Of a stretch of 64,000 bases of DNA, positions 184 through 28,098 are shown one piece after another. The first letter of the stretch is position 1. Each line of letters begins with the position of its first letter. Made by a program: the position numbers and the translations under genes. The stretch covers positions 12,321 through 76,320 of the forward strand of contig JBCCLH010000006.1 of the NCBI GenBank assembly GCA_039026955.1, read 5' to 3'. The stretch comes from Bacteroidota bacterium (GTDB taxonomy: Bacteria > Bacteroidota > Bacteroidia > Flavobacteriales > Flavobacteriaceae). A model generated the notes under the pieces. It did not search any database and was not told the origin of the DNA. It saw only the letters and a list, made by a program, of their open reading frames with translations.

Positions 184-2529
184 ATGATTATGAAAAAAAA
201 GTACTTATTGTTACCGATTATTCTGCTAAGCTGCTTTCAACTTTTTAGTCAGCAAAAAAATGTGGAAGATGAATATTACGACTATTTTAAACTTCCGCGT
301 GAAGGTTTGCATCTTCATTTAAACAAAACAACCTATTTTCAAGGAGAAGAAATTTGGTTCAAAGGCTACGCGTACGATCAAAAGAATCAGCGTACTTCAA
401 AAGCTACGGTCAACATCAACGTAGGAATTTATGATGCAGAAGGAAAGCAGGTGAAGAAAGCATTGTTTTCTTCTGAAAATGGCTTGACATATGGAAATTT
501 TGCCGTCGATTCTACATTTACAGCCGGAACCTATTATATAAAAGCAGCAACCAATTGGATGAACAACTTTAAAGAAAATGATGCATTCATCCAAAAAATT
601 AAAATCATTACCAATCAAGAAACTGCCGAAACGAAGGTGAAAGAAGATGTGAAATTTGACTTTCAATTCTTGCCTGAAGGTGGACATATTGTAGCCAATA
701 CTACAAATAACATCGGCTTTAAAGTCATCAACAACAATGGAAAAGGTGTCATTGCTTATGGAACTTTGTTTGATCAGGATAAAAACAAAATCGCTTCTTT
801 TGAAGCGAATGCATTGGGCATGGGGAAATTTTTGTTAAAAGCAGATAAAAACGCCACCTACACCGCGGAAATTTTCATGGAAGACGGAAGTGTGCTCATA
901 AAAGAATTACCCAAAGCAAAAGCACAAGGTATCTCACTTATCGCGCGAAATACATCAAAAGATAAAGTCATTCTTGAATTCAACACAAATGAAGAAACGT
1001 TGGCGAATCATGCGGATAAAAGCTATAAAATCTTAATTCAACAAAGCGGAAAATTAAAAACAGCATCCTTACAATTTACAGATACACAAAAAGCCGTAAG
1101 TATTGAGAAGAAAAGTTTATTCAAAGGTGTCAACATCATCACTGTATTTGACAACGATCAAAATCCAATCTTAGAACGTTTGCTTTTTAACGATTACGGA
1201 ATTAAAAAGACAGATGTAAAAGTGGAAAAACTCAGAAAGATGAAGGATTCCATCATACTTTCTGTAGAAGCGCTCAATCTCAACACAAAAGGAAACATCA
1301 GTATCTCTGTATTACCAGAAGGAACCGAAAGTTACAATCCGAAGCACAACATTCTTTCTAGTTTTTATTTAAAACCACACATAAAAGGTCCGATTGACAA
1401 TCCACAATATTACTTCCACAATATGGACAGAAAGAAAAAATACGAGTTGGATGTGTTATTATTGACGCAAGGTTGGAGTCGTTACGAGTGGAAAGATATT
1501 TTTGAAAATAAACCCACAGCAAAATATAATTTTGAAAATGGAATTTCAGTCGCAGGACGTGTCAATCTGCCTGCCACAGGTGTAAAACAGCTCTTTTTAC
1601 ATGCAACAAAAAATCATGACAGCAAGTTTATTGACTTAGACAAAGATCAACGTTTTGAACTCACGGGTTTATTTTTGGAAGAAGACGAAACACTCAGATT
1701 CTCGTATATTTCTCAAAACGGTCCGTTGCGAAAACCAAGTATGTATGTTCGATTTTTAACGCCTGGCAAAGAAGACAAAATTCCAGAAATCTACCTAGAA
1801 GGAGAAACCAAAAAAATCATATCCAACACTGCAAATTTCAGAGTTCCAGATGACTTCTTCAACAAAGATGCAGAAGCATTAGGTGTAGTACTTTTAAAAG
1901 CAGAAAAAGAAAGACCTAAGTATAATACAAATTTTCTACTACATCCAAGCGTTACCGAAATTACTTTAAAAGAATACAATCGTTACATATACCTTGTAGA
2001 ATATTTAAATGATAATGGTTTTATTGCCAGTGAAGATTTTGGGCAAGTAGTTATCAACTCCAGAATTGCTTCTGGAAGACCGCCTACCGTATTTTTCAAC
2101 GATGTACGCTTAAAAGATTATAACATTCTTTTCAAAATGTCGTTAGCAGAAATTGAACGCATCGTGATCGATAAATATGGTATGGCACTTGACCCACATA
2201 AAGCGACCCAAGGCGTTATCAAAATATATTCACGAACCACACCATTATTTAAAAAACCAGATGTAGAAAGTCCCTATTTAAAAGCTGCTGCGCCACTATC
2301 TTTTGCGGTTCGAAAAAAGTATTATGCACCGAGATATACTTCGTATTTAAATCCTGTATTTGAAAAATTTGGGGCTATTTCATGGCATCCAATTGTAGAA
2401 CTCAATACCAAAACTGCCAGCACTTTTAAAATATACGATACCTATACAAAAAACATCACCTTATTCATAGAAGGCATTTCCGAAAATGGTGATTTGATCT
2501 CTGAACGGAAAACCATCCAAATCCGTTAG
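184..2529 (+). CDS. Secreted MG2-like / beta-sandwich / TonB-plug-like protein without barrel, paralog 2 (start may be 190)
   Basis: Signal peptide ending LFS|Q; LHLNKTTYFQGEEIWFKGY, QFLPEGG, LLLTQGWSRY, plug-like PTVFFND...IERIVIDK...GVIKIYSR. Confidence 0.75.
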   Translation: MIMKKKYLLLPIILLSCFQLFSQQKNVEDEYYDYFKLPREGLHLHLNKTTYFQGEEIWFKGYAYDQKNQRTSKATVNINVGIYDAEGKQVKKALFSSENGLTYGNFAVDSTFTAGTYYIKAATNWMNNFKENDAFIQKIKIITNQETAETKVKEDVKFDFQFLPEGGHIVANTTNNIGFKVINNNGKGVIAYGTLFDQDKNKIASFEANALGMGKFLLKADKNATYTAEIFMEDGSVLIKELPKAKAQGISLIARNTSKDKVILEFNTNEETLANHADKSYKILIQQSGKLKTASLQFTDTQKAVSIEKKSLFKGVNIITVFDNDQNPILERLLFNDYGIKKTDVKVEKLRKMKDSIILSVEALNLNTKGNISISVLPEGTESYNPKHNILSSFYLKPHIKGPIDNPQYYFHNMDRKKKYELDVLLLTQGWSRYEWKDIFENKPTAKYNFENGISVAGRVNLPATGVKQLFLHATKNHDSKFIDLDKDQRFELTGLFLEEDETLRFSYISQNGPLRKPSMYVRFLTPGKEDKIPEIYLEGETKKIISNTANFRVPDDFFNKDAEALGVVLLKAEKERPKYNTNFLLHPSVTEITLKEYNRYIYLVEYLNDNGFIASEDFGQVVINSRIASGRPPTVFFNDVRLKDYNILFKMSLAEIERIVIDKYGMALDPHKATQGVIKIYSRTTPLFKKPDVESPYLKAAAPLSFAVRKKYYAPRYTSYLNPVFEKFGAISWHPIVELNTKTASTFKIYDTYTKNITLFIEGISENGDLISERKTIQIR

Positions 2530-2534
2530 TTACA

Positions 2535-2555
2535 AAACGCTTGTAAAAGCAATAT
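2535..2555 (+). repeat. Duplicated intergenic segment of the paralog array, copy 2
   Basis: Identical 21-mer to 135..155, 2400 bp away. Confidence 0.9.
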
Positions 2556-2588
2556 GTATGATTATGACATTAAGTAAAACCGATTATC

Positions 2589-4934
2589 ATGAAAAACAAA
2601 TATGTATATATACTCCTACCACTCATCATACTGAGTTGTTTTCCGCTATTTAGTCAGGAAAAAACAATTGAAGAAGAATATGCAGCGTATTTCACCTTAC
2701 CACGGGAAGCGCTTCACATTCATTTAAACAAAACGACCTATTTTCAGGGAGAAGAAATTTGGTTCAAAGGCTATGCGTACGACCAAAAAAATCAGCTATC
2801 ATCAAAAGCAACCACAAATATCAATGTGGGCATTTATGATGCAGAAGGCAAGCAAATCAAAAAAGCGTTGTTTGCGGCTGAAAATGGAGTGACCAATGGA
2901 AATTTTGCGGTAGATTCTACCTTCACCGCAGGAACATATTACCTAAAAGCAGAAACCAATTGGATGAAAAATTTCAAAGAAAGCAATGCATTCATTCAAA
3001 AAATTGAAATTGTCACTGATGAAAGTATCAAAGAAAAGATACAAAAAGAAGCAGCCAGTTTCGATTTTCAGTTCTTGCCAGAAGGTGGACATATTGTCGC
3101 AAACACCAAAAACAATATTGGCTTTAAAGTCATTGCGAATGATGGAAAAGGCGTCACGGCTTCAGGAATTATTTTTGATCAGGAGAAAAAGCAAGTCGCT
3201 TCCTTTGAAAGCAATACCTTGGGAATGGGCAAATTTCTATTTCAACCAAAAAAAGATCGAGAATACACAGCAGAAATTACGCTGGAAAACGGCGCAAGCA
3301 TCACAAAAAAATTACCAAAAGCCAATGCACAAGGAATTTCGCTGATGATCAAAAATCTGTTCGACGATAAAATTGTACTTGAATTTAACACGAATGAAGA
3401 AACCTTGGCAAATCACCCAAATAAAACGTACAAAATTCTCATTCACCAAAATGGCAAACTAAAAACAACTGCATTGCAGTTTAGCGATACGAAAAAAGCG
3501 GTGACCATCGAAAAAAAGGGATTGTTTAAAGGTGTGAATACGATTACGGTATTCGATAACGAACAGCATCCGATCATGGAACGCTTATTTTTTAACGACT
3601 ACGGAATTAAAAAAGCGAAAATTAACGTAGCGAAGTTGAACACCATACAAGATTCTATTTTACTTTCTCTAAAAGAACTCAATCTTAACGAAAAGGCAAA
3701 TGTGAGTATTTCTATCTTACCAGAAACGACCGATAGTTACCATCCTGAGCATAACATTCTTTCCAATTTCTATCTCAAACCACATGTAAGAGGTTTTGTG
3801 GAAAATCCGCGATATTATTTTTACGACATGGACCGAAAGAAAAAATATGAACTAGATGTATTACTGTTAACGCAAGGTTGGAGTCGCTACCAATGGAAAG
3901 ATATTTTTGAGAACAAACCTAAAATAAAGTATCCTTTTGAAAATGGAATCACTGTTTCGGGTCGTGTCAATAAACCTGCTACTGACATCAAACAAATCTT
4001 TTTACACAGCACAAAAAATCATACTGCAAAATTTATTGACATAGATGAAGATCAACGATTTGAACTTACAGGTTTATTTTTAGAAGAAGATGAAAAAGTA
4101 CGCTTTTCGTATATTGATGCAAAAGGTGAGTTGAAAAAACCAGGCATGTATCTTCGATTCCAAGTGACCGATAAAGAAGATAAAATTGCAGAAGTCTTTT
4201 TGAGTGAAACCATCAATGTGTCCACCACCGCAAACTTTACCGTGCCCAAAGATTTCTTTGTGGAAAAAGCGGAGGAATTGGATACCGTAGTTTTAGAAGC
4301 TGAAAACTCAAGATTGGCATATGAAGATCCGTTTATGGCTGATCCGCAAGTTACAGACGTTACCGAAGAAGATTATTACACACATTACAACATCATCCGA
4401 TTTCTTCGCATGAATGGTTTTGACGCAACAGAACAAGATGGCGGTGTCATAGTACGACATTGGTCGCGTCACAGAGGTGCGCCTGGTGTATTTTTAAACA
4501 ATAGACAATTACTGGGCAACGGAATGCGCATGTTATACAACATGTCGTTGTCAGATATTGAACGAATTGTCATTGACAAAGACAGCAGAGTACCGATTAA
4601 TGGTGGTGTGGCAGACGGAGTCATAAAAATTTATATGCGAGAAGACTCCATGTTTGCACAACAAGCAGACGATATTGTGTATTTGGCGACCACAACTACG
4701 AAATCTTTTGCGACAGGAAAAGAATACTACGCACCAAATTACAGTTCCTATCTCAATCCTATTTTCAAAAAATACGGAACCATTTCTTGGTTGCCAACCG
4801 TAGAATTGAACACAAATACGGCAACAAGTTTCAAAATTTATGATACCTATACCAAAAATGTAACCTTGTTCATTGAAGGAATTTCAGAAAATGGAAATCT
4901 CATCTCTGAACGGAAAACCATCCAAGTTCGATAA
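2589..4934 (+). CDS. Secreted MG2-like / plug-like protein, paralog 3
   Basis: Same motifs and same length (781 aa) as paralog 2. Confidence 0.75.
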   Translation: MKNKYVYILLPLIILSCFPLFSQEKTIEEEYAAYFTLPREALHIHLNKTTYFQGEEIWFKGYAYDQKNQLSSKATTNINVGIYDAEGKQIKKALFAAENGVTNGNFAVDSTFTAGTYYLKAETNWMKNFKESNAFIQKIEIVTDESIKEKIQKEAASFDFQFLPEGGHIVANTKNNIGFKVIANDGKGVTASGIIFDQEKKQVASFESNTLGMGKFLFQPKKDREYTAEITLENGASITKKLPKANAQGISLMIKNLFDDKIVLEFNTNEETLANHPNKTYKILIHQNGKLKTTALQFSDTKKAVTIEKKGLFKGVNTITVFDNEQHPIMERLFFNDYGIKKAKINVAKLNTIQDSILLSLKELNLNEKANVSISILPETTDSYHPEHNILSNFYLKPHVRGFVENPRYYFYDMDRKKKYELDVLLLTQGWSRYQWKDIFENKPKIKYPFENGITVSGRVNKPATDIKQIFLHSTKNHTAKFIDIDEDQRFELTGLFLEEDEKVRFSYIDAKGELKKPGMYLRFQVTDKEDKIAEVFLSETINVSTTANFTVPKDFFVEKAEELDTVVLEAENSRLAYEDPFMADPQVTDVTEEDYYTHYNIIRFLRMNGFDATEQDGGVIVRHWSRHRGAPGVFLNNRQLLGNGMRMLYNMSLSDIERIVIDKDSRVPINGGVADGVIKIYMREDSMFAQQADDIVYLATTTTKSFATGKEYYAPNYSSYLNPIFKKYGTISWLPTVELNTNTATSFKIYDTYTKNVTLFIEGISENGNLISERKTIQVR

Positions 4935-4943
4935 AACCCAACA

Positions 4944-4988
4944 CAAAACCTCTGAAGCAATACAAAGCGAAGAGGTTTTGTTACTTTT
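4944..4988 (+). terminator. Probable intrinsic terminator or stabilising hairpin within the array
   Basis: 10-bp inverted repeat caaaacctct/agaggttttg followed by a T-rich tract, 10 bp after the stop codon. Confidence 0.5.
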
Positions 4989-5114
4989 TTCTACGATGAA
5001 TAGAAACATTTTACATCGCGATTACCAAGAAAATTTTAGCTTTTTTTTAATAGTTCAAAAAGTAGGTACATTCTACTAAAACCTTAATTTAGAGCTTGGA
5101 TTTATGCACTTACT

Positions 5115-7463
5115 ATGAAAAAAAACTATCTATTTTTACTCCTATTCATTTTAGGAAGTTCCTTAAGTTGCAGTTACGCACAACAAAAAAAAGTTGAAGA
5201 CGAATATGCAGCATATTTTACCTTACCCAGAGAAGCTTTATATGTACATCTCAACAAAACCATCTATTTTCAAGGAGAAGAAATTTGGTTGAAAGGCTAT
5301 GCGTTTGATCAAAAAAATCAATTGACGTCAAAGGCAACAACCAACATTCATGTCGGCGTATACGATGCAGAAGGAAAGCAAGTGCAAAAAGCGTTATTCA
5401 GAGCGGAAGATGGTGTGGCAAAAGGAAACATTCTAATCGATTCGACATACACCGCCGGAACTTACTATGTGAAAGCGGAAACCAATTGGATGAAAAACTT
5501 CAAAGAAGACAATGCATACATTCAAAAAATTCAAATTCTCACAGATCAATCGAAAGCGAAAGATGCAGTAAGCGAAGAGGAACGGTATGACTTTCAATTT
5601 CTTCCAGAAGGTGGAAATTTGGTTGTGGCAACTCAAAATACGATTGGTTTTAAAGTCATCAATCAACAAGGAAAAGGCGTTATTGCCAACGGAATTGTGT
5701 ATGATGCTGACGGAAACGAAATCACTTCATTCAAAGGAAATGACAAAGGTTTGGGCAAATTTTTATTCTATCCAAAAACCGATCAAGCATATACTGCTAA
5801 AATCACGCTTGAAACGGGAGAAGAAATCACGCAAGTGCTACCAAAAGCAGAAGACAGCGGAATTGCACTGACGCTTAAAGATCCGTTTCAAGATAAAATC
5901 TTTCTCAACTTCAACACCAATCAAGCTACGTTAGAACGTTTTCCGACCAGGAAATACAAAGTGCTCATTCACCAAAATGGAAAACAAAAAACCATTGAAT
6001 TCTCGTTTGACGGCGCAACAGAAAAAATTGTGAGTGTCTTGAAAAAAGATTTGTTCAAAGGTGTCAATACGATCACTGTTTTTACGGAAGACAATACGCC
6101 CATTCTAGAACGTTTATTTTTCAACGACCACTTTATTAAAACCTCAAAAATTAATATTGCCAAAGTACAAACATTGAGTGATTCTATCGTGCTTTCAATT
6201 AGCGAATCTGAATTACAGGAAAATAGTAATGTAAGTATTTCGGTCTTGCCAGAATTGACAAAAGCCTACGAACCGCAGCACAATATTGCCTCGCATTTTT
6301 ACCTAAAACCACATCTAAAAGGTTCGGTGGAAGATCCGCAGTACTACTTTAGAAAAATGACGCGCAAGACAAAATATGAATTGGATATCTTATTGCTCAC
6401 GCAAGGTTGGAGTCGTTACGAGTGGAAAAATATTTTTGAAGAAAAACCGAATGGTTCCAATCGTTTTGAAAACGGAATTACCATTCAAGGAACCGTAAAT
6501 CGTCCTGCGAAAAATGTAGATCGTTTATTTTTGTATGCGACTAAAAATCATTCTGCACAATTCATCGATTTAGACAAAGATCAAAAATTTACCATATCCA
6601 ATTTATTTCTAGAACAAGGAGAAGAAGTGCGTTTCTCGTACATGGATAACAAAGGACGTTTTAAAAAACCAAGCATTTATTTGCGTTTCAAAGTCAATGA
6701 TGGAAAAGATCAAATTTCTTCTGAAATTCGCAACGAGAAAACGCCAATCTTACGCAATGCTTCCACTTTTCAGGTTCCAGAAAATTTCTTTTACGAAGAA
6801 GCACAACAATTAGATCAAGTGGTGATCAAAGCCAAGAAAAAGAAAGAAATCTATACAAAAGAGCCAATTTTGATGAACGCGAAAGTCACGAAAGTAACCA
6901 AACAAATCTACGAACGCTACTTTAACGTGACCGATTTCATTCAAGACAACGGATACGATGTATTTGAAAATTTGGGACAGGTTTCCATCACTACCAGACG
7001 ACGTCCAATAGCATCACCATTGGTGTTTTATGACGGCGCCCAATTGACAAATTTGACGATTTTATACGGTTTATCCACTGCAAACGTTGAAAAAATTGTC
7101 ATCGATAAAACGGGACAAGGACAAGGAATGAACGCAGGTTTTGGTGGTGTCATTAAAATCTATTCGCGTCAAACGCCTTTGTTTGAAAAAGGACCTGGCG
7201 AAAAAATGTATACAAGCGCCAAAGCGCCCGAAGCTTTTACGCCTACCAAAGAATACTACGCGCCAAAATACGCCTCCTATTTCAACAGTACTTTTGAAAA
7301 ATACGGAGTAATTTCATGGATTCCAGAACTAAAACTTCAAAATTCGGAAGCTGTCAATTTCAATATCTATGATACGCGTACCAAAAACATCATACTGTTT
7401 ATTGAAGGGATTTCAGAAAGTGGCGAACTCATCTCGGAACGTAGAATCATTCAAGTCCGATAA
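5115..7463 (+). CDS. Secreted MG2-like / plug-like protein, paralog 4
   Basis: Signal peptide SYA|Q; same motifs; plug-like PLVFYDG...VEKIVIDKTG...GGVIKIYSR. Confidence 0.75.
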   Translation: MKKNYLFLLLFILGSSLSCSYAQQKKVEDEYAAYFTLPREALYVHLNKTIYFQGEEIWLKGYAFDQKNQLTSKATTNIHVGVYDAEGKQVQKALFRAEDGVAKGNILIDSTYTAGTYYVKAETNWMKNFKEDNAYIQKIQILTDQSKAKDAVSEEERYDFQFLPEGGNLVVATQNTIGFKVINQQGKGVIANGIVYDADGNEITSFKGNDKGLGKFLFYPKTDQAYTAKITLETGEEITQVLPKAEDSGIALTLKDPFQDKIFLNFNTNQATLERFPTRKYKVLIHQNGKQKTIEFSFDGATEKIVSVLKKDLFKGVNTITVFTEDNTPILERLFFNDHFIKTSKINIAKVQTLSDSIVLSISESELQENSNVSISVLPELTKAYEPQHNIASHFYLKPHLKGSVEDPQYYFRKMTRKTKYELDILLLTQGWSRYEWKNIFEEKPNGSNRFENGITIQGTVNRPAKNVDRLFLYATKNHSAQFIDLDKDQKFTISNLFLEQGEEVRFSYMDNKGRFKKPSIYLRFKVNDGKDQISSEIRNEKTPILRNASTFQVPENFFYEEAQQLDQVVIKAKKKKEIYTKEPILMNAKVTKVTKQIYERYFNVTDFIQDNGYDVFENLGQVSITTRRRPIASPLVFYDGAQLTNLTILYGLSTANVEKIVIDKTGQGQGMNAGFGGVIKIYSRQTPLFEKGPGEKMYTSAKAPEAFTPTKEYYAPKYASYFNSTFEKYGVISWIPELKLQNSEAVNFNIYDTRTKNIILFIEGISESGELISERRIIQVR

Positions 7464-7703
7464 AAATTTCATCTTCTAAATTCAAAAAAAAGCTGTATCT
7501 TTAAATAAATGAAGGTATATAATTATTTTAATAAGAATTATCATTCAAAAACAATAATTACATACTTTTAATAAAAGACCTATTCTCACATTATTCCCCC
7601 AAAAGTGAATTGTTCCCAGCAAAATTCATTTTCAATACAAGTCTGTCTTGAAGTATTTCTTGACGGTATTTAAAAACGAATTACAACTGTTGAGCCATTA
7701 TTT

Positions 7704-10085
7704 ATGAGAAAAAATTATCTTTTATGTATGTTGCTGTGCCTGTCGTGGTGCGCACTTTCGCAAACGAATGCTTCTATTCGTGAAAACTATCTAGATCATT
7801 TTAAATATTCTGAAGAAGAAGCTGTTTTTATTCACCTTAACAAAACCAGTTATTTAGTCGGAGAAGAAATTTGGTTAAAAGGATATGTGTATAGCAAACG
7901 AGACGAAAAAGCTTCGAGAACCTCTTCCAATTTGTATGTAGGATTGTACGATGCTGATGGAACTCAAGTTTCCAAAAAGCTACTTCGAATTCAAAACGGA
8001 ATGGCACAAGGAAATATTGAGTTGGATGAAAAATTAAACTCAGGTCGCTACTACATCAAAGCCACCACACAATATATGATGGATGCACAACCTGAAGATG
8101 ATGCTTTTGTTGAAGAAATTGTTATCTACGGAGCTACTGTGGCAACCAAAGCAGACAATAATACTGCTGAAACTTACGATATTCAATTTTTACCCGAAGG
8201 TGGACATTTGGTGAAAAATATTGAAAATACCATTGCTTTTAAAGCGATCAATCAGGAAGGAAAAGGTGTCTATGTCACGGGAATTGTCTATGATGAAAAC
8301 GATACGGAAATCACTGATTTTGAAAGTAATAATTACGGGATTGGCACTTTTGAGTTTATTCCGAAAGACAATACCATTTACAAGGTAAAAACAACTTTTA
8401 AAGAAGAAGAAACTAGTCAACAGACATTGCCCAAAGCAAAAGATACAGGCATTGCGATTCAGGTAAACGCTATTGAAAAAGACAGCATTAAAATTTCATT
8501 AAACACCAATCCAGAAACTTTGCGATCTATTGTTTCTAAAGATTATACTTTATTCATTCACAAAGATGGAAAAGCACGTTCGATGCCTTTTTCTTTTAAA
8601 AATACAGAAACTGTCACGCTGACAATTGCAAGAGACGGACTCTTTAATGGCGTCAATACCATCACACTTTTTGACGGGAGAGTTCCTATTTTGGAGCGTT
8701 TGTTTTTTAATAGAAAAACGCCAAAAAATCTTTCTATAATGGTTAAAAAGGGAAACACAGAAAAAGACTTTTCTGATTTTTCTATTTATCTCATTAAAAG
8801 AAGAAAAGGAATTTTAGAAGCCAATGTGAGCATTTCTATATTGCCCGAAACGACCGAAGCGTACAATCCTGCACACAGCATGTATTCTAGCTTTTATCTA
8901 AAACCGTATGTGAAAGGTGAAATTGAAAATCCGAAGTATTATTTTCCGAATACCACCAAAACGAAGAGAGAAGACTTGGATGCTTTATTGATCACGCAAG
9001 GTTGGAGCGCATACGATTGGACTTATATTTTTCAAAATCCTTCCAAAAAACGAGCGGTAGAAAACGGCATCACCATCAGTGGTACCTTAAATTTCCCGAA
9101 TAAACGTGTAAAAGGGATTCTTTTGCAAGACACCAAAGAACAACCTGCAAAATTCATTCCGCTCGATAAAGAACGAAAATTTGTAATTAAAAATTTATAT
9201 CCGCATGCGGATGAAGAACTTCGTTTTTCAGCAGTAGATTACAGTAAAAAATTCTTAAAACCTAGATTATATCTGACGTATAGTGCCAATTCAAAAGAAG
9301 ATCAAATCACCGATAATATGATTATTGATCGTTCCTTTTTAAATAAACTAAACATCTTTTCGCTTCCTGACGGATTCTTTCCAGAAGATGCGGAAGACCT
9401 TGAGGCTGTTCTCATTGAAGGCGCGAATAAAAATCAGCGAAAAAGTATTGATCCAATGATGGTAAAAGGGAAAGAAACTGTTTTTGGCATTGAAGAATAT
9501 TTGCAATATCCACAAGTAAAAAACTTTATTGAGAACAGCGGTTATCATGTATGGGAAGATCCTTTAAGCAATACAAAACTTAATATTACACCAAGAAAGA
9601 GGCTAACATTACAAGGAAATCCCGTAGTGCCACTTATCTTTTTAGACGATGCGCCACTAAGTGATTTTTCAATTCTGCGTGATTTTTCATCCTCACAAGT
9701 AGCACGAGTTATTGTAGATAAAAGCGGACAAGGATATGGCTTGCGTGGTGTTGGTGGTGTCATTAAAATTTATACGCGAAGAACACCGCTTACGGAAACG
9801 GCTCCTATACGAAGAGACTCGTATGCGGGCTACACACCGCCAATAGGATACAGTCCGCACAAACGCTACTACGAACCAAAATACCAATCGTATACGAGCG
9901 ACACTTTCCAAAAATACGGGGCAATTGATTGGCAACCGAACATTACCATTCCAAGAAGAGGCCCGTATAATTTTATTGTCAAACACAAAGACGTCAAAGC
10001 CATCACGATGTTTATAGAAGGTATCTCAAAAGACGGAAGCTTGATTTCAGAAAAGAGAACCATTACGCTTGTGGAGGAGGAATAG
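7704..10085 (+). CDS. Secreted MG2-like / plug-like protein, paralog 5 (most divergent)
   Basis: FIHLNKTSYLVGEEIWLKGY, QFLPEGG, LLITQGWSAY, GGVIKIYTR, FIEGISKDG. Confidence 0.75.
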   Translation: MRKNYLLCMLLCLSWCALSQTNASIRENYLDHFKYSEEEAVFIHLNKTSYLVGEEIWLKGYVYSKRDEKASRTSSNLYVGLYDADGTQVSKKLLRIQNGMAQGNIELDEKLNSGRYYIKATTQYMMDAQPEDDAFVEEIVIYGATVATKADNNTAETYDIQFLPEGGHLVKNIENTIAFKAINQEGKGVYVTGIVYDENDTEITDFESNNYGIGTFEFIPKDNTIYKVKTTFKEEETSQQTLPKAKDTGIAIQVNAIEKDSIKISLNTNPETLRSIVSKDYTLFIHKDGKARSMPFSFKNTETVTLTIARDGLFNGVNTITLFDGRVPILERLFFNRKTPKNLSIMVKKGNTEKDFSDFSIYLIKRRKGILEANVSISILPETTEAYNPAHSMYSSFYLKPYVKGEIENPKYYFPNTTKTKREDLDALLITQGWSAYDWTYIFQNPSKKRAVENGITISGTLNFPNKRVKGILLQDTKEQPAKFIPLDKERKFVIKNLYPHADEELRFSAVDYSKKFLKPRLYLTYSANSKEDQITDNMIIDRSFLNKLNIFSLPDGFFPEDAEDLEAVLIEGANKNQRKSIDPMMVKGKETVFGIEEYLQYPQVKNFIENSGYHVWEDPLSNTKLNITPRKRLTLQGNPVVPLIFLDDAPLSDFSILRDFSSSQVARVIVDKSGQGYGLRGVGGVIKIYTRRTPLTETAPIRRDSYAGYTPPIGYSPHKRYYEPKYQSYTSDTFQKYGAIDWQPNITIPRRGPYNFIVKHKDVKAITMFIEGISKDGSLISEKRTITLVEEE

Positions 10086-10105
10086 GTTGTTTTTTGTTTT
10101 TGGGG

Positions 10106-10203
10106 AGTTGTGGAGTTGTGGATTTGTGGATTTGTTAATTTGTTTTTTGTGGATTTGTGGAGTCGTGGATTTGTGGATTTGTTTTTTGTGGATTTGTTGA
10201 TTT
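10106..10203. repeat. Degenerate TTGTGGAT (~8-mer) low-complexity array
   Basis: Many ttgtggat/gatttgt units directly after the stop of paralog 5; related arrays near 30075, 39470 and 52670. Confidence 0.8.
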
Positions 10204-10213
10204 CCTTTGAAAA

Positions 10214-10254
10214 ATACCAATATACGAACATACCAAAATACCAACATACCAAAG
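10214..10254. repeat. Degenerate ATACCAA(C/A) tandem repeat
   Basis: aataccaatatacgaacataccaaaataccaacataccaaa. Confidence 0.6.
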
Positions 10255-10296
10255 GCAAAGCCGTGTCTAAAATTCCAAAAGCAAAACATGTCTAAA

Positions 10297-10353
10297 AGCA
10301 TAGCGCATCTAAATTCTAACAGCGTAGCGCGTCTAGAAAGCGTAGCGTATCTA
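10297..10353. repeat. Three direct copies of a 15-mer, agc(g/a)tagcg(c/t)(a/g)tcta
   Basis: Copies at 10297, 10321 and 10339. Confidence 0.7.
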
Positions 10354-10355
10354 AG

Positions 10356-10796
10356 CTAAAACTCCTCATGCTTTATCTTTCGTTGATAATAAAAAGCAGG
10401 CAGTAAAATCAACACAAAAAGTGGTTGAATTAAAAAGCGGCGTACATAAAAAGTAAGTAAATAATCTTCGGATAAATCGTGTTTGATCAAATAAAAATAG
10501 AGTGAAACTAAAATCATAAAGGCAATCACATACAATCCGAGAGAAAACTTAACGACATTCTTGTTTTCAAACGCAATATAAATAATTGCTAAGGAAACTA
10601 TCATATTCAAACCGTACCGAAACAGGTGACTAAAAAAGAGCGACCACGTTTCATAGCTCGGAATGGTTCCTTGAAAATAATCGTACTTAAAAAAGTTTAA
10701 AAACGGATCGTAAAAGAGTTCGTTTTCAAAAGCTCTAATTAAGACAAGCAATCCAAACAAAAATCCAATGACGATATATTTCCAAACTTTCTGCAT
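10356..10796 (-). CDS. Exosortase F system-associated membrane protein
   Basis: RAFENELFYDPF and YVRRFLIQP motifs; abuts xrtF. Confidence 0.85.
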   Translation of the reverse strand: MQKVWKYIVIGFLFGLLVLIRAFENELFYDPFLNFFKYDYFQGTIPSYETWSLFFSHLFRYGLNMIVSLAIIYIAFENKNVVKFSLGLYVIAFMILVSLYFYLIKHDLSEDYLLTFYVRRFLIQPLFVLILLPAFYYQRKIKHEEF

Positions 10797-24304: not shown

Positions 24305-24493
24305 ATGTTACAACAAATTTCAACAGTAGGAACCCTATTAAACAAAAAGCAACAAAGTCAAATTAAAGGAAGAGACGGAATGGTTCCTGGAATGGTTCCC
24401 ATAAATCCAACACAATGTAGATATTGTAGCGGAGAGTGGCTAGAAGATTTCGGATTGTGTGCTTTGCCTATTGGCTATCCGTGCGGACTTTAG
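24305..24493 (+). CDS. Putative RiPP/bacteriocin-like precursor: leader ending KKQQSQIKGR plus a 4-Cys core
   Basis: A-rich initiation region, own terminator, resembles the L-x-K-x-x-Q-x-x-I-x-GG leader; core CRYC-x10-C-x7-C. Confidence 0.65.
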   Translation: MLQQISTVGTLLNKKQQSQIKGRDGMVPGMVPINPTQCRYCSGEWLEDFGLCALPIGYPCGL

Positions 24494-24689: not shown

Positions 24690-26240
24690 ATGGAACATAT
24701 TATACTTTCCCTGTTAACGAACAACAGCTATTTAGATATCAACCGTGAATTATTGAACTTGCAATTTTTGTCACATCCAGAATATCCAAGTTTAAAATCC
24801 ATTACCGATACACTCGATTATTTTGAGATTGAAAATTTAGCCGCTACCGTACCCAAAGAAGCATTGGATCAGATGCCGAATTCGTTTTTAGCGTTGGTCA
24901 AAGGTGAACGCGGTGATGAAGTCGTTTTGGTAGAAAAGAAACGCAATGCCATTCAACTATTGAATACAGAAGAAAAGAAAGAAAAAATTTCGGAAGCTGA
25001 TTTTTCGGAACGTTGGACAGGAACGATTGTCGCGGTGGAAGAACAAGAAAAGAAGAGTGGCATTCAATCCATTCAACAAGCACTTCCCTATTTTATTGTG
25101 GCTGCAGTGGCGTCTGCAAATGTCATTCTAAATTTTAATATTACCTATTTATTATATACCGCACTTACTTTAGTCGGACTGTACATTAGTATTTTAATCA
25201 TTCGAGAAGATTTAGGGATTAAAAGTAAAACGGTTGCAAAAGTTTGTGGTGCCATTTCTAAAAATAGTACTTGTGGCGAAGTCATCAATACCAAAGGCAA
25301 TAAAATATTTGGAATCATTTCTTTAAGTGATGCTTCATTTGTGTTTTTTGCGGGTTTATTTTTGATTTTATCCTCTATCGGATTTCATCATGCAACCTTA
25401 CTTGTCATGTCTTTAGCGGGACTTCCTATCGTCATATATGCCTTATACCGACAAGGTGTTGTGCTTAAAAAATGGTGTGCATTGTGTTTGTTAATTGCTG
25501 GAATCTTAATTTTACAAACCGCATTATTACTCGCAACTTTTAACTATTTCTGGTTCTTTTATACAGCGTATGTTGTAAAACTGGTGAGCATTTTTGCATT
25601 ACTCTACATTGCTTGGATGTATTGTAAATCGTATTGGGAAAGTCATGAGAAACTAGCCACTACAGAGACCAACTTCTTAAAATTCAAGCGAAATCCTGAG
25701 TTGTTTAAAACTTTATTACAAGAGAAAAGCGTGCTCAATCCAAATGTGATTGAGCAACCATTGCGTGTTGTCTATGGAAATCCTAAGGGTGCGATCAAGT
25801 TACAAGGTGTTACCAATCCGTTGTGTGGCTATTGTACAGGCGCTTTTGAAGCCTATGATAAGTTGATGAGTACGTATGGAAATGACATTCAGTTAGAGTT
25901 TATTTTCAACGTTCCTCCAGATACAAAAAACAAGAGTACGCAAATTGCTTCTCAACTCATTGATTTGTATCTAAAAGATCCAAAACAATCATACGCCGCT
26001 TTACAAGAATGGTTTGCAAATAGAGATGTAGACGCATGGCAAGCAAAGTTTGGGTTGTCTGAAAGTGCCATGGTACAAGAAATCTTGGCAGCGCACAAAG
26101 AATGGTGTGGCATCAACAGTGTAAATTATACACCTGCCAGTATTTTGAACGATCAGTTCTTCCCACAATCCTATGAGATTAAGGATTTACCATTGTTTAT
26201 TCAGGATATGATTTTGGAGTTGCAGGGAGAAGAGACTTAA
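24690..26240 (+). CDS. C39-like / VKOR / thioredoxin (DsbA-like) fusion membrane protein
   Basis: N-terminal SHPEYPSLKSI...RWTG C39-like domain with no Cys; VKOR loop C-x8-C and WCALC; Trx-fold CGYC and YTP cis-Pro. Confidence 0.85.
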   Translation: MEHIILSLLTNNSYLDINRELLNLQFLSHPEYPSLKSITDTLDYFEIENLAATVPKEALDQMPNSFLALVKGERGDEVVLVEKKRNAIQLLNTEEKKEKISEADFSERWTGTIVAVEEQEKKSGIQSIQQALPYFIVAAVASANVILNFNITYLLYTALTLVGLYISILIIREDLGIKSKTVAKVCGAISKNSTCGEVINTKGNKIFGIISLSDASFVFFAGLFLILSSIGFHHATLLVMSLAGLPIVIYALYRQGVVLKKWCALCLLIAGILILQTALLLATFNYFWFFYTAYVVKLVSIFALLYIAWMYCKSYWESHEKLATTETNFLKFKRNPELFKTLLQEKSVLNPNVIEQPLRVVYGNPKGAIKLQGVTNPLCGYCTGAFEAYDKLMSTYGNDIQLEFIFNVPPDTKNKSTQIASQLIDLYLKDPKQSYAALQEWFANRDVDAWQAKFGLSESAMVQEILAAHKEWCGINSVNYTPASILNDQFFPQSYEIKDLPLFIQDMILELQGEET

Positions 26241-26413
26241 AACTTTAGACCTCTGTTGCAAAAAGCAGTAAGTAGCAACGACTCTTTCTAATCACTTTTC
26301 TTTCCAACTATTCATAGTTCTTGTGGGTTTTGAGTTTGATCTATAATTACAGTGTTAAAGAGACAAAATACAACTATTCGTAACTGAATAGATAACAATA
26401 GCTTATAACACAT

Positions 26414-27391
26414 ATGAAAAAAACCAAATTTATATATGAGAATGATTCGCTAATTCTAAAATTATTTGAAGAGACTTTTCATAAAAGTGTTTTAGATAAT
26501 CTTGAAGAGTATTATTTTCCGAAATTTTCACATCATAAAAAATGGAATTGTTACAGTGATTATTCCTTTGATTCAAAAAAAGCAAACGATGTAATAACAT
26601 TTACTTTTTTGCCTTATTTAGCTGATCCTTTAGTTATTTCTGAGATTATTAGCAAGCTTGCACCTTCAGAAATAAAAAAGACTAGAAGCGTAAATCCTAA
26701 GTTTTTAGAGTTTATAAAAAACTCACCATTTGTCACATTTTCAATCATTATTGAAGACCATAAAAATTATTATTTTGAAAATAGAGATAAATTGAAAGAG
26801 GCAATGCTATTATCTCTTAATAGCTTACTCAATGAAAGTTTTCCCAAATGGACTAAAAGTAGACCACATCTCAAAGATTATCATCGAAGGTTAACTAAAA
26901 AAACAAAAGCTGTTATTAGGTTGATAGAAAGAGATAAGAAGATTCGAATTATTAAAAACCTTTTTTTAATAACTTCATTTGGAAGTTATATCGCAACACA
27001 ATTTGCAAACAAAACAAAAGCTGAAATTTTTGGATGGTTCTCTGATAGAGATGAAATTAATGATGTCGAAAAAAATTATTCTCTTGACTTATTTAATATA
27101 CAGTTTAGTGAACACCTAATAAACGAAAATTGCAAATTTGTTGCCTCTCCTGCAAGTAGTTCTGATAACGAATGGTATGGAGAATTTATTAAAATACCAG
27201 ACTTAATAACTGGCGCTATTGCAGATTATGATTTTATGAATGATAAAGTTAGTCATGATAAATTTATTCCTATAATCCGTGATTTAATATCAGATAATAA
27301 AAGAAATATTTTTGTTTTTAGATTATTTTTAGACAACAATGGTCAAATAAATCTTGGAAGATTAACAACTCATAAAAAGGTGAATGATTAG
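26414..27391 (+). CDS. Low-GC orphan soluble protein, possibly RNase H-fold/DUF3800-like
   Basis: 325-aa ORF; hand-counted 60-nt lines give ~23-27% GC; acidic motifs CYSDY, WFSDRD, KIPDLITG. Confidence 0.55.
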   Translation: MKKTKFIYENDSLILKLFEETFHKSVLDNLEEYYFPKFSHHKKWNCYSDYSFDSKKANDVITFTFLPYLADPLVISEIISKLAPSEIKKTRSVNPKFLEFIKNSPFVTFSIIIEDHKNYYFENRDKLKEAMLLSLNSLLNESFPKWTKSRPHLKDYHRRLTKKTKAVIRLIERDKKIRIIKNLFLITSFGSYIATQFANKTKAEIFGWFSDRDEINDVEKNYSLDLFNIQFSEHLINENCKFVASPASSSDNEWYGEFIKIPDLITGAIADYDFMNDKVSHDKFIPIIRDLISDNKRNIFVFRLFLDNNGQINLGRLTTHKKVND

Positions 27392-27477
27392 TCTTCGGTT
27401 ACATAAGTTGTAACTACAATTACAAAGGATTTGACTAAATTCAAAGAGATAAGAACGATTTACATGCATTTGCTGCT

Positions 27478-28098
27478 TCACTCAAAAACCATCTCAAACA
27501 CCAAATAATGTTTAATCCCAAATTCCTTTCCCCAGTTTTCGATGTTTTTTCCGCTGCTTTCTACCGCGCACCAATATTTGGAGCCGTCTTTTTCATATGG
27601 TAAAATATAGGCAAGTAGATAGAACTTTTTACCATAAATGATCTTTGTTCCTGCATTGCTGGCTATGTTTCGCAAACTGTAATCATCCGATTTAATAGCA
27701 TCAAATTGTTTCTCTGTAGAAAATCGTGGAAAACAGAAGTTCATTTTTAGTTTGTTATCAGGTGTAAGCTTTGAAATGATCTTTAGATTGAAAACAGTAT
27801 CATTGATCTTTTTCAGTTCATCGTACGGCATCACATTGCTATCAATAATGGTACTTTCTGTTTTAATCTTCCCATCCCAGATTTCTTTTACCGTGAGTTT
27901 ATAGGTTTTGTCTGCTAATTCCTTTCCAGCGAATTTTAGTTTCTTGAATTCAATTCCTTCAAAATTGAGAATATCTCTGATTTCAGAGTTTTTAATAGTA
28001 TCATCGGAAGTAAGCTTTACGGAGTTATTTTGTGTGTTTTGTGCGAAAGAAACGGAAGACAACAACGCACACACAAGCGCAATACAAAGAGATTTCAT
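27478..28098 (-). CDS. Secreted hypothetical protein
   Basis: Signal peptide ending SFA|Q; 206 aa. Confidence 0.7.
   Translation of the reverse strand: MKSLCIALVCALLSSVSFAQNTQNNSVKLTSDDTIKNSEIRDILNFEGIEFKKLKFAGKELADKTYKLTVKEIWDGKIKTESTIIDSNVMPYDELKKINDTVFNLKIISKLTPDNKLKMNFCFPRFSTEKQFDAIKSDDYSLRNIASNAGTKIIYGKKFYLLAYILPYEKDGSKYWCAVESSGKNIENWGKEFGIKHYLVFEMVFE

Follow-up and report, generated by a model that had tools for sequence, protein, structure and literature searches.

A putative inward-facing VKOR-DsbA fusion with a C39-like domain in a Kordia-like member of the Flavobacteriaceae

The gene described here lies at positions 24,690 to 26,240 of a 64,000-nucleotide (nt) stretch of contig JBCCLH010000006.1 (positions 12,321 to 76,320; GenBank assembly GCA_039026955.1), referred to below as the window, and encodes a fusion of a C39-like domain, a VKOR (vitamin K epoxide reductase) domain and a DsbA-like domain. 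Among described systems it resembles the VKOR-thioredoxin (Trx) fusion of Synechococcus (PDB 3KP9, 4NV2, 4NV5, 4NV6) and other bacterial VKOR-Trx proteins, with which it shares a four-helix core, a Cys pair in a loop, a CXXC motif at the start of transmembrane helix 4 (TM4), and a fifth TM of the VKOR-Trx type leading to a Trx-fold domain, placed after the last TM, with its own CXXC and a cis-proline; the quinone acceptor of the Synechococcus type is presumably shared as well. In contrast to that type, which has five TMs, an N-terminus inside, and the Cys loop and Trx domain outside, our fusion has one more TM ahead of the core and carries a C39-like domain at its N-terminus, and with six predicted TMs and a reversed bias of lysine and arginine (K/R) it is predicted to face inward. 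Its Trx part is also unlike that of Synechococcus in being similar to DsbA and ScsC, with a helical insert.

C39 domains are the cytoplasmic leader-binding domains of ATP-binding cassette (ABC) transporters that contain a peptidase (PCATs) and of HlyB transporters, and in every characterised case the C39 or C39-like domains of PCAT and HlyB are cytoplasmic and meet their substrate before export. The N-terminal domain of the fusion has the fold and the C-terminal motifs (F..W.G..v.v) in common with the C39 domains of PCATs, or ABC-transporter maturation and secretion (AMS) proteins (PCAT1, ComA, LahT), and with the C39-like domain of HlyB, and like the latter it has no catalytic residues. In the fusion this domain is joined to a redox module, not to an ABC transporter, and its partner is a predicted one.

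Bacterial oxidative folding is, in the textbook account, a process that takes place outside the cytoplasm. In engineered cytoplasmic systems (inverted DsbB or VKOR combined with leaderless DsbA; CyDisCo), a quinone-linked oxidase that faces the cytoplasm drives a DsbA-type catalyst, as we propose here; those systems are artificial, whereas the fusion would be a natural, fused and substrate-targeted version. A natural VKOR with cytoplasmic catalytic cysteines, ApVKORi of Aeropyrum pernix (Hatahet & Ruddock 2013; Hibender et al. 2017, via PMC13486548), is described as supporting cytoplasmic disulfide formation in E. coli assays (PMC13486548). By that description, to which our comparison is confined, ApVKORi comes from an archaeal hyperthermophile and stands alone, with neither a leader-binding domain nor a fused DsbA, unlike the fusion. 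In the same 2026 paper, the VKORs given as inward-facing are no more than a few crenarchaeal paralogs (PMC13486548), and in the literature searched such VKORs were described from Crenarchaeota only; this agrees with the initial annotation of this DNA, which had pointed to inverted VKORs in crenarchaea. Within the Bacteroidota, a thiol oxidoreductase (EH213_01843) encoded beside a 4-Cys bacteriocin with a double-glycine (GG) leader and beside a PCAT is genetically required for full activity of the toxin, bacteroidetocin (Coyne et al. 2019, PMC6671954). A full-text literature search for VKOR combined with C39, a leader peptide or a bacteriocin found nothing relevant, and a paper on VKOR phylogeny makes no mention of C39 fusions or Bacteroidetes.

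From the sequence and from structural models, we propose, with a probability of about 0.7, that the fusion is an inward-facing, leader-guided, quinone-linked oxidase that would set disulfides in precursor peptides before their export by PCATs. This interpretation is supported by every computational test that could be run. We give somewhat better than even odds to a broader claim, that the fusion represents the first natural pathway in bacteria by which structural disulfides are formed at the cytoplasmic side of the membrane: a large Bacteroidota family of VKOR-DsbA proteins in which an extra helix, TM-a, would invert the enzyme and a dead leader-protease domain would aim it at GG precursors, such that the single Kordia copy may serve at least 150 Cys-rich GG-leader peptides before their export by PCAT or type I systems.

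Domain architecture and family of the fusion protein

The fusion gene and its segments are as follows, with positions given for the window and residues for the 516-amino acid (aa) product.

24690..26240, + strand: gene for the C39-like/VKOR/DsbA-like fusion, 516 aa, 6 predicted TM helices
24690..25049, + strand: N-terminal C39-like domain, aa 1-120, without the catalytic Cys, His and Asp and without a signal peptide
25080..25130, + strand: extra helix TM-a, aa 131-147 (helix 132-147 in the AlphaFold2 (AF2) model), absent from canonical VKORs
25140..25541, + strand: VKOR four-helix core, aa 151-284, made up of TM-b (VKOR TM1), Cys loop, TM2, TM3 and TM4 (Pfam VKOR; AF2 helices 151-174, 212-229, 234-258 and 264-283)
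25203..25322, + strand: Cys loop, aa 172-211, rich in K/R and holding the shuttle pair C186/C195, invariant in the family
25476..25487, + strand: VKOR CXXC, C263-A-L-C266, at the start of TM4, invariant in 148 sequences
25563..25625, + strand: TM5, aa 292-312 (hydropathy; part of the long AF2 helix 292-333), linking the core to the Trx domain
25752..26237, + strand: DsbA/ScsC/BdbD-like Trx-fold domain, aa 355-516, with CXXC C379-G-Y-C382 at nt 25824-25835 and cis-proline P482

Pfam profiles matched the fusion protein in three segments: Peptidase_C39 (PF03412) at residues 16-120, with 26.1 bits against a 22-bit cut-off and over profile positions 28-132 only; VKOR (PF07884) at 155-279, with 44.4 bits against a cut-off of 27.5 and over positions 2-132 of 134; and Thioredoxin_4 at 359-492, for which the single sequence scored 20.6, under the cut-off of 23.2. 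With a profile match above the cut-off, a four-helix core, a CXXC that starts TM4 and paired cysteines in the loop from TM1 to TM2, the fusion protein is a member of the VKOR family. NCBIfam gave a weak match only, of residues 14-163 to the N-terminus of a HlyB-type transporter (TIGR01846). A direct phmmer comparison of the protein with PDB returned no VKOR match, but a profile search did recover VKOR structures; profile and fold matches taken together were to VKOR (3kp9, 4nv6, 6wv9), to DsbA and ScsC, and to the peptidase domains of PCAT1 and ComA. The AF2 model computed with the family alignment had a mean predicted local distance difference test (pLDDT) value of 94.6 and a predicted template modelling (pTM) score of 0.82, and contained helices at 132-147, 151-174, 180-189, 195-199, 212-229, 234-258, 264-283 and 292-333, of which 180-189 and 195-199 lie within the Cys loop. 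The Trx domain was matched in profile searches to 1z6m (8.5e-12) and to ScsC (4xvw, 2e-9), and the top Foldseek matches for it were 4gxz, 4xvw, 6eez and 3eu3.

The closest homologs of the fusion protein are Kordia proteins (70-90% identity), by which the source of the window is a Kordia-like member of the Flavobacteriaceae. A search over every representative protein yielded 3835 relatives, 1347 of them at E <= 1e-30, in a family of more than 1300 clusters at 50% identity. Since the relatives are so numerous, and since the best 150 are almost all full length (about 510-560 aa), the fusion represents a large and stable family. C186, C195, C263, C266, C379, C382 and P482 were invariant in the alignment of 148 sequences, and in a tree of VKOR cores the three-domain family formed one clade (support 99/98) on a long stem.

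As the initial annotation had stated, the protein has no signal peptide: the N-terminus (MEHIILSLLTNNSYLDINRE...) contains nothing like the n and h regions of one, and forms instead the first helix (AF2 helix 2-11) of a folded 120-aa domain that starts at residue 1. Foldseek matched this domain to the peptidase domains of ComA (3k8u) and PCAT1 (7n87, 6v9z). When we aligned it with the five PCATs encoded in the same genome, the Q..DCG segment that carries the catalytic Cys was found to be deleted, the catalytic His was replaced by E or another residue, and DP by NT; the C-terminal F..W.G motif was retained. These losses rule out an active bacteriocin-processing C39 peptidase. Judged from its sequence, the domain is a non-catalytic C39-like domain of the HlyB type, with a predicted location in the cytoplasm.

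Membrane helices and distribution of charge

Residues 131-171 of the fusion (ALPYFIVAAVASANVILNFNITYLLYTALTLVGLYISILII) form a stretch of 41 residues without charge, which the initial annotation had read as long enough for two helices, with a single TM or a re-entrant helix as the alternative that would speak against it. The AF2 model breaks the stretch at 148-150, giving helices 132-147 and 151-174 separated by a three-residue turn, and N, S, G, P and D prevail at these turn positions across the family. For TM-a in the 148 relatives, the best Wimley-White octanol energy over 19 residues had a median of -10.3 kcal/mol and was negative in 148 of 148, similar to the medians for TM-b to TM5 (-9.9 to -11.1 kcal/mol), so that both halves of the stretch lie near -10 kcal/mol. 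TM-a is also not amphipathic (helical hydrophobic moment 0.46, as low as in the other TMs), and hardly any charged residues occur at positions 132-146. The reading as two helices has thus held up, and we regard the evidence that the stretch forms a hairpin of two TM helices, with TM-a spanning the membrane, as strong but indirect, being drawn from the model and from the family alignment. Residues 20-178 of the Synechococcus VKOR (3kp9/4nv6) align from profile position 160 onward only; therefore, the second helix corresponds to VKOR TM1, and TM-a is the addition. Of 142 relatives, 135 have one TM ahead of the VKOR core. With six spans, it follows that the Cys loop and the CXXC would share one side of the membrane with both soluble domains, the C39-like and the Trx domain.

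Which side this would be is suggested by the charges, for which the initial annotation gave counts that we could reproduce. The Cys loop contains 7 K/R between R172 and K205 (R172, K178, K180, K184, K191, K202, K205), and R254, K260 and K261 precede the VKOR CXXC, K260 being K or R in 94% of relatives and K261 in 61%. The alternate loops, SSIGFHHAT and ATFNYFWF, have no K/R. The absence of K/R from three very short loops of this single protein is, taken alone, not significant; the weight lies in the charge pattern of the whole family and in its contrast with canonical relatives. We examined these with a TopPred-like routine (Goldman-Engelman-Steitz scale, trapezoid window), in which K+R were counted in the loops and in flanks of 15 residues. 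Cys-side K+R counts were the higher in all 142 family members with recognisable landmarks (means of 13.8 on the Cys side and 0.9 on the other), and for the 118 six-TM members the means per loop, from the N-terminus, were 3.1, 0.14, 5.18, 0.06, 1.99, 0.37 and 3.15; the family mean for the Cys loop is thus 5.2, against 7 in our protein. The density of K+R was 0.169 on the Cys side and 0.049 on the other, a 3.4-fold skew, whereas that of D+E was about equal (0.107 and 0.119), which argues for a positive-inside signature rather than a general property of loop composition.

Controls from the same phylum showed the opposite bias. Five stand-alone 4-TM VKORs scored 0 on the Cys side against 3-5 on the other, and nine 5-TM VKOR-Trx fusions 3-5 against 8-13, in contrast to the values of our family; three further three-domain proteins recovered in the same control search scored 15-17 against 0-4. 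About 3 K/R stand directly before TM-a in the family, and translocation of the N-terminal tail is therefore disfavoured. That the Cys loop, the CXXC, the Trx domain and the C39-like domain lie on the cytoplasmic side is thus a strong prediction from sequences and models, and the argument made initially, from an inside N-terminus, 6 TMs and the positive-inside rule, is supported as a prediction, that rule placing the side in the cytoplasm in 142 of 142 relatives. The strongest support for the inward topology is an element that the initial annotation did not invoke, namely the C39-like N-terminal domain: since such domains are cytoplasmic in PCAT and HlyB, an inside N-terminus is favoured independently of charge.

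A separate observation concerns five stand-alone VKORs of 136-181 aa (L029, L030, L032, L033 and L034; family f23) from another class of the same phylum, in which K/R are likewise concentrated on the side of the Cys loop (5-8, against 0-3 on the other). These VKORs group apart from the three-domain family in a clade of their own and, from these counts, may represent another set of bacterial VKORs that face inward. The VKOR gene adjoins a histone-deacetylase-like gene in both L033 and L029.

Peptide neighbours, proposed function and alternatives

Upstream of the fusion gene, at a distance of 197 nt, we observed an open reading frame (ORF) for a small peptide with a leader like those of class II bacteriocins.

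24305..24493, + strand: precursor peptide gene, 62 aa, with a bacteriocin-type leader (MLQQISTVGTLLNKKQQSQIKGR) and core cysteines C38, C41, C52 and C60

Of 16 Kordia loci scanned, 10 encode an orthologous peptide at this upstream position, and all 10 have a true GG site and the same C-x2-C...C...C core, with the consensus ML.SISKLGTVL.KKEQ..I.GG followed by C-x2-CGGEW.APLCALP..SPCA. Loci from other genera have genes for one to three GG-leader peptides of 6-8 Cys downstream of the fusion, and often a PCAT gene as well. We retrieved 76 related loci with a 14-sequence alignment of the fusion family (from Kordia, Aquimarina, Dokdonia, Flavobacterium, Leptobacterium, Chryseobacterium, Saprospiraceae and Cytophagales), and in 62 of these a GG-leader peptide with at least 4 Cys was encoded within 5 kb of the fusion. 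Such peptides occurred at 1.5 per 10 kb near fusions, against 0.33 per 10 kb in the genome from which the window derives, a background that reflects a genome itself very rich in them. Leader matches of the neighbouring peptides in NCBIfam were sub-threshold only.

This genome contains about 170 Cys-rich GG-leader peptides, of which 126 with at least 4 Cys have leaders of the MKK..GG type (median 6 Cys, core of about 48 aa). A leader model built from the MKK..GG peptides gave at least 150 matches in the genome but next to none in the genomes of 22 other Flavobacteriaceae, whether or not these carry the fusion, indicating that this leader type is specific to Kordia. Small genes of one very extensive paralogous family share the leader MKKxNLKSLxLNKKSISxL...GG, for example at C9:30437-31750, C20:88667-91864 and C24:68011-70555 of the genome (G000). 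At least one of the five PCAT genes lies beside genes for HlyD and a TolC-like outer-membrane efflux protein, and another is accompanied by HlyD. The presence of these genes makes plausible the connection with type I export that had been suggested initially; we infer the connection itself.

In the mechanism that we propose, the dead C39-like domain would bind the GG leader of Cys-rich precursors in the cytoplasm, with the leader still attached, and the fused DsbA-like domain (CGYC) would oxidise cysteines of the core. Electrons would pass from C379/C382 to C186/C195, then to C263/C266 and to a membrane quinone, probably menaquinone. The oxidised precursor would then be delivered to a PCAT exporter, working in part with HlyD and TolC-like partners, which would cut the leader and export the peptide to the periplasm or, where those partners act, past it. 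The adjacent 4-Cys peptide would be the obvious client, and the other Cys-rich GG-leader peptides of the Kordia genome, some 170, possible ones. A domain that binds leaders finds its ligand in the cytoplasm alone, because PCATs cut the leader off in the course of export. If true, the proposal would account for disulfides in PCAT- or type I-exported peptides of organisms that have no DsbA or DsbB, would add leader-guided disulfide installation to the tailoring steps known for bacteriocins and for peptides that are synthesized by ribosomes and modified post-translationally (RiPPs), and would provide a natural, self-contained module, with docking domain, oxidase and DsbA in a single chain, by which peptides rich in disulfides could be produced in the cytoplasm of E. 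coli.

The gene for the bacteroidetocin oxidoreductase, which we recovered from a gut metagenome by means of the published cloning primer, encodes a protein of 173 aa that is Trx-like, has one N-terminal TM and a CDLC motif, and matches Pfam Thioredoxin_8/2 only, with no VKOR or C39-like part. The fusion is therefore not the bacteroidetocin enzyme, from which it differs in architecture. The contig concerned (L130, human gut metagenome) carries at 7076-10693 a cluster of the bacteroidetocin B type, consisting of genes for a 221-aa multi-TM protein, the peptide, the 173-aa oxidoreductase (CDLC) and a 707-aa PCAT; the peptide ORF appeared to be split across two frames.

A number of observations weigh against our proposal. 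The cytoplasm is normally a reducing compartment. The assignment of the domains of the fusion to the same side rests on counting TM helices, and the close structural relatives of its Trx domain (ScsC, DsbA and BdbD) all act outside the cytoplasm. The peptide of the window has G-R at the GG site (24371-24373, AGA), and just after the cleavage site, at 24377-24400, comes a tandem duplication of 12 nt (ggaatggttcct/ggaatggttccc), so that this copy may be processed in an altered way. The bacteroidetocin oxidoreductase is probably oriented towards the periplasm, and GG-leader peptides of the phylum can therefore be oxidised past the inner membrane; a domain for binding leaders is, however, not needed by an enzyme whose substrates have already lost theirs, and so the contrast with the fusion also fits a model in which the leader docks. 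Our searches of the genome found no DsbB, no Pfam DSBA and no second VKOR, so that the fusion is its only VKOR/DsbA-like protein, and in Kordia the fusion gene is syntenic with mreC-mreD-mrdA-rodA; both findings would fit a housekeeping oxidase of the envelope as well. Yet the occurrence of VKOR across the phylum is patchy (50 of 301 genomes), many relatives in the Flavobacteriaceae lacking it, a distribution that fits an accessory gene. Three MauE homologs are present in the genome (G000 C35:15521-15925, C9:38542-38898 and C6:104552-104821, in open frames of 401, 247 and 172 aa) and could, by their sequences, provide disulfides in the periplasm, where a disulfide pathway involving the MauE family has been proposed in a 2026 preprint. 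With VKOR so distributed and these homologs present, a housekeeping Dsb role, though possible, is not required of the fusion.

The missing DsbB and DSBA, the envelope-gene synteny, the resemblance of the Trx domain to periplasmic ScsC and DsbA and the probable orientation of the bacteroidetocin enzyme would also be accommodated by a canonical outward-facing protein, as are the bacterial VKORs described so far (PMC13486548). TM-a would then be a signal anchor of the reverse type, the C39-like domain of 130 residues would pass through the membrane with no signal peptide to direct it, and oxidation of exported peptides or envelope proteins would occur in the periplasm. It is rare for a folded N-terminal domain of 120 aa to be translocated when a signal peptide is lacking; some 14 K/R would need to cross the membrane while the cytoplasmic loops remained nearly bare of them, with about 3 K/R right before TM-a, and canonical relatives from the same phylum follow the positive-inside rule the other way. 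A C39-like domain in the periplasm would, moreover, depart from its location in PCAT and HlyB and would be left there without a ligand, as the leader is removed in export. We consider an outward orientation unlikely on these grounds. An arrangement in which helix 132-147 is interfacial or re-entrant, like the elbow helix of ABC exporters, would leave the C39-like domain in the cytoplasm and place the Cys loop, CXXC and Trx domain in the periplasm, as in the Synechococcus VKOR. MAFFT alignment with the PCATs of the genome does set TM-a opposite the PCAT elbow and TM-b opposite PCAT TM1, and the AF2 helix of TM-a is just 16 residues long. This split topology nevertheless appeared very improbable to us, because the elbow helices of the genome's own PCATs are K-rich and amphipathic, whereas TM-a is nearly uncharged in 148 sequences, with an energy of about -10 kcal/mol and a low moment, and because some 10 K/R would still lie outside and almost none inside. 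Possibly, the topology is inward and the function is another, the protein acting as reductase, isomerase or redox sensor, or else as a general oxidase of the cytoplasmic face whose C39-like domain docks PCAT transporters and not leaders. HlyB C39-like domains bind substrate regions other than GG leaders, the CXXC of the family is CG[YF]C, similar to that of protein disulfide isomerase, and there is a single copy of the fusion for about 170 candidate peptides. Since the GG-leader Cys-rich neighbours are very consistent across genera, the VKOR chemistry from thiols to quinone is oxidative, and the shuttle cysteines and both CXXC motifs are invariant, we hold such other functions to be improbable, and favour the leader-guided oxidase.

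Other genes in the window

Between the fusion gene and an endonuclease gene, in a stretch of low GC content (0.31 for 26001-28000), there is an ORF of 325 aa at 26414-27391 on the + strand. It had no Pfam or NCBIfam match and was not found at the syntenic position in K. antarctica or K. jejudonensis; it looks like a strain-specific insertion. At 184-10085, the window contains four tandem paralogous ORFs of 781-793 aa, all on the + strand.

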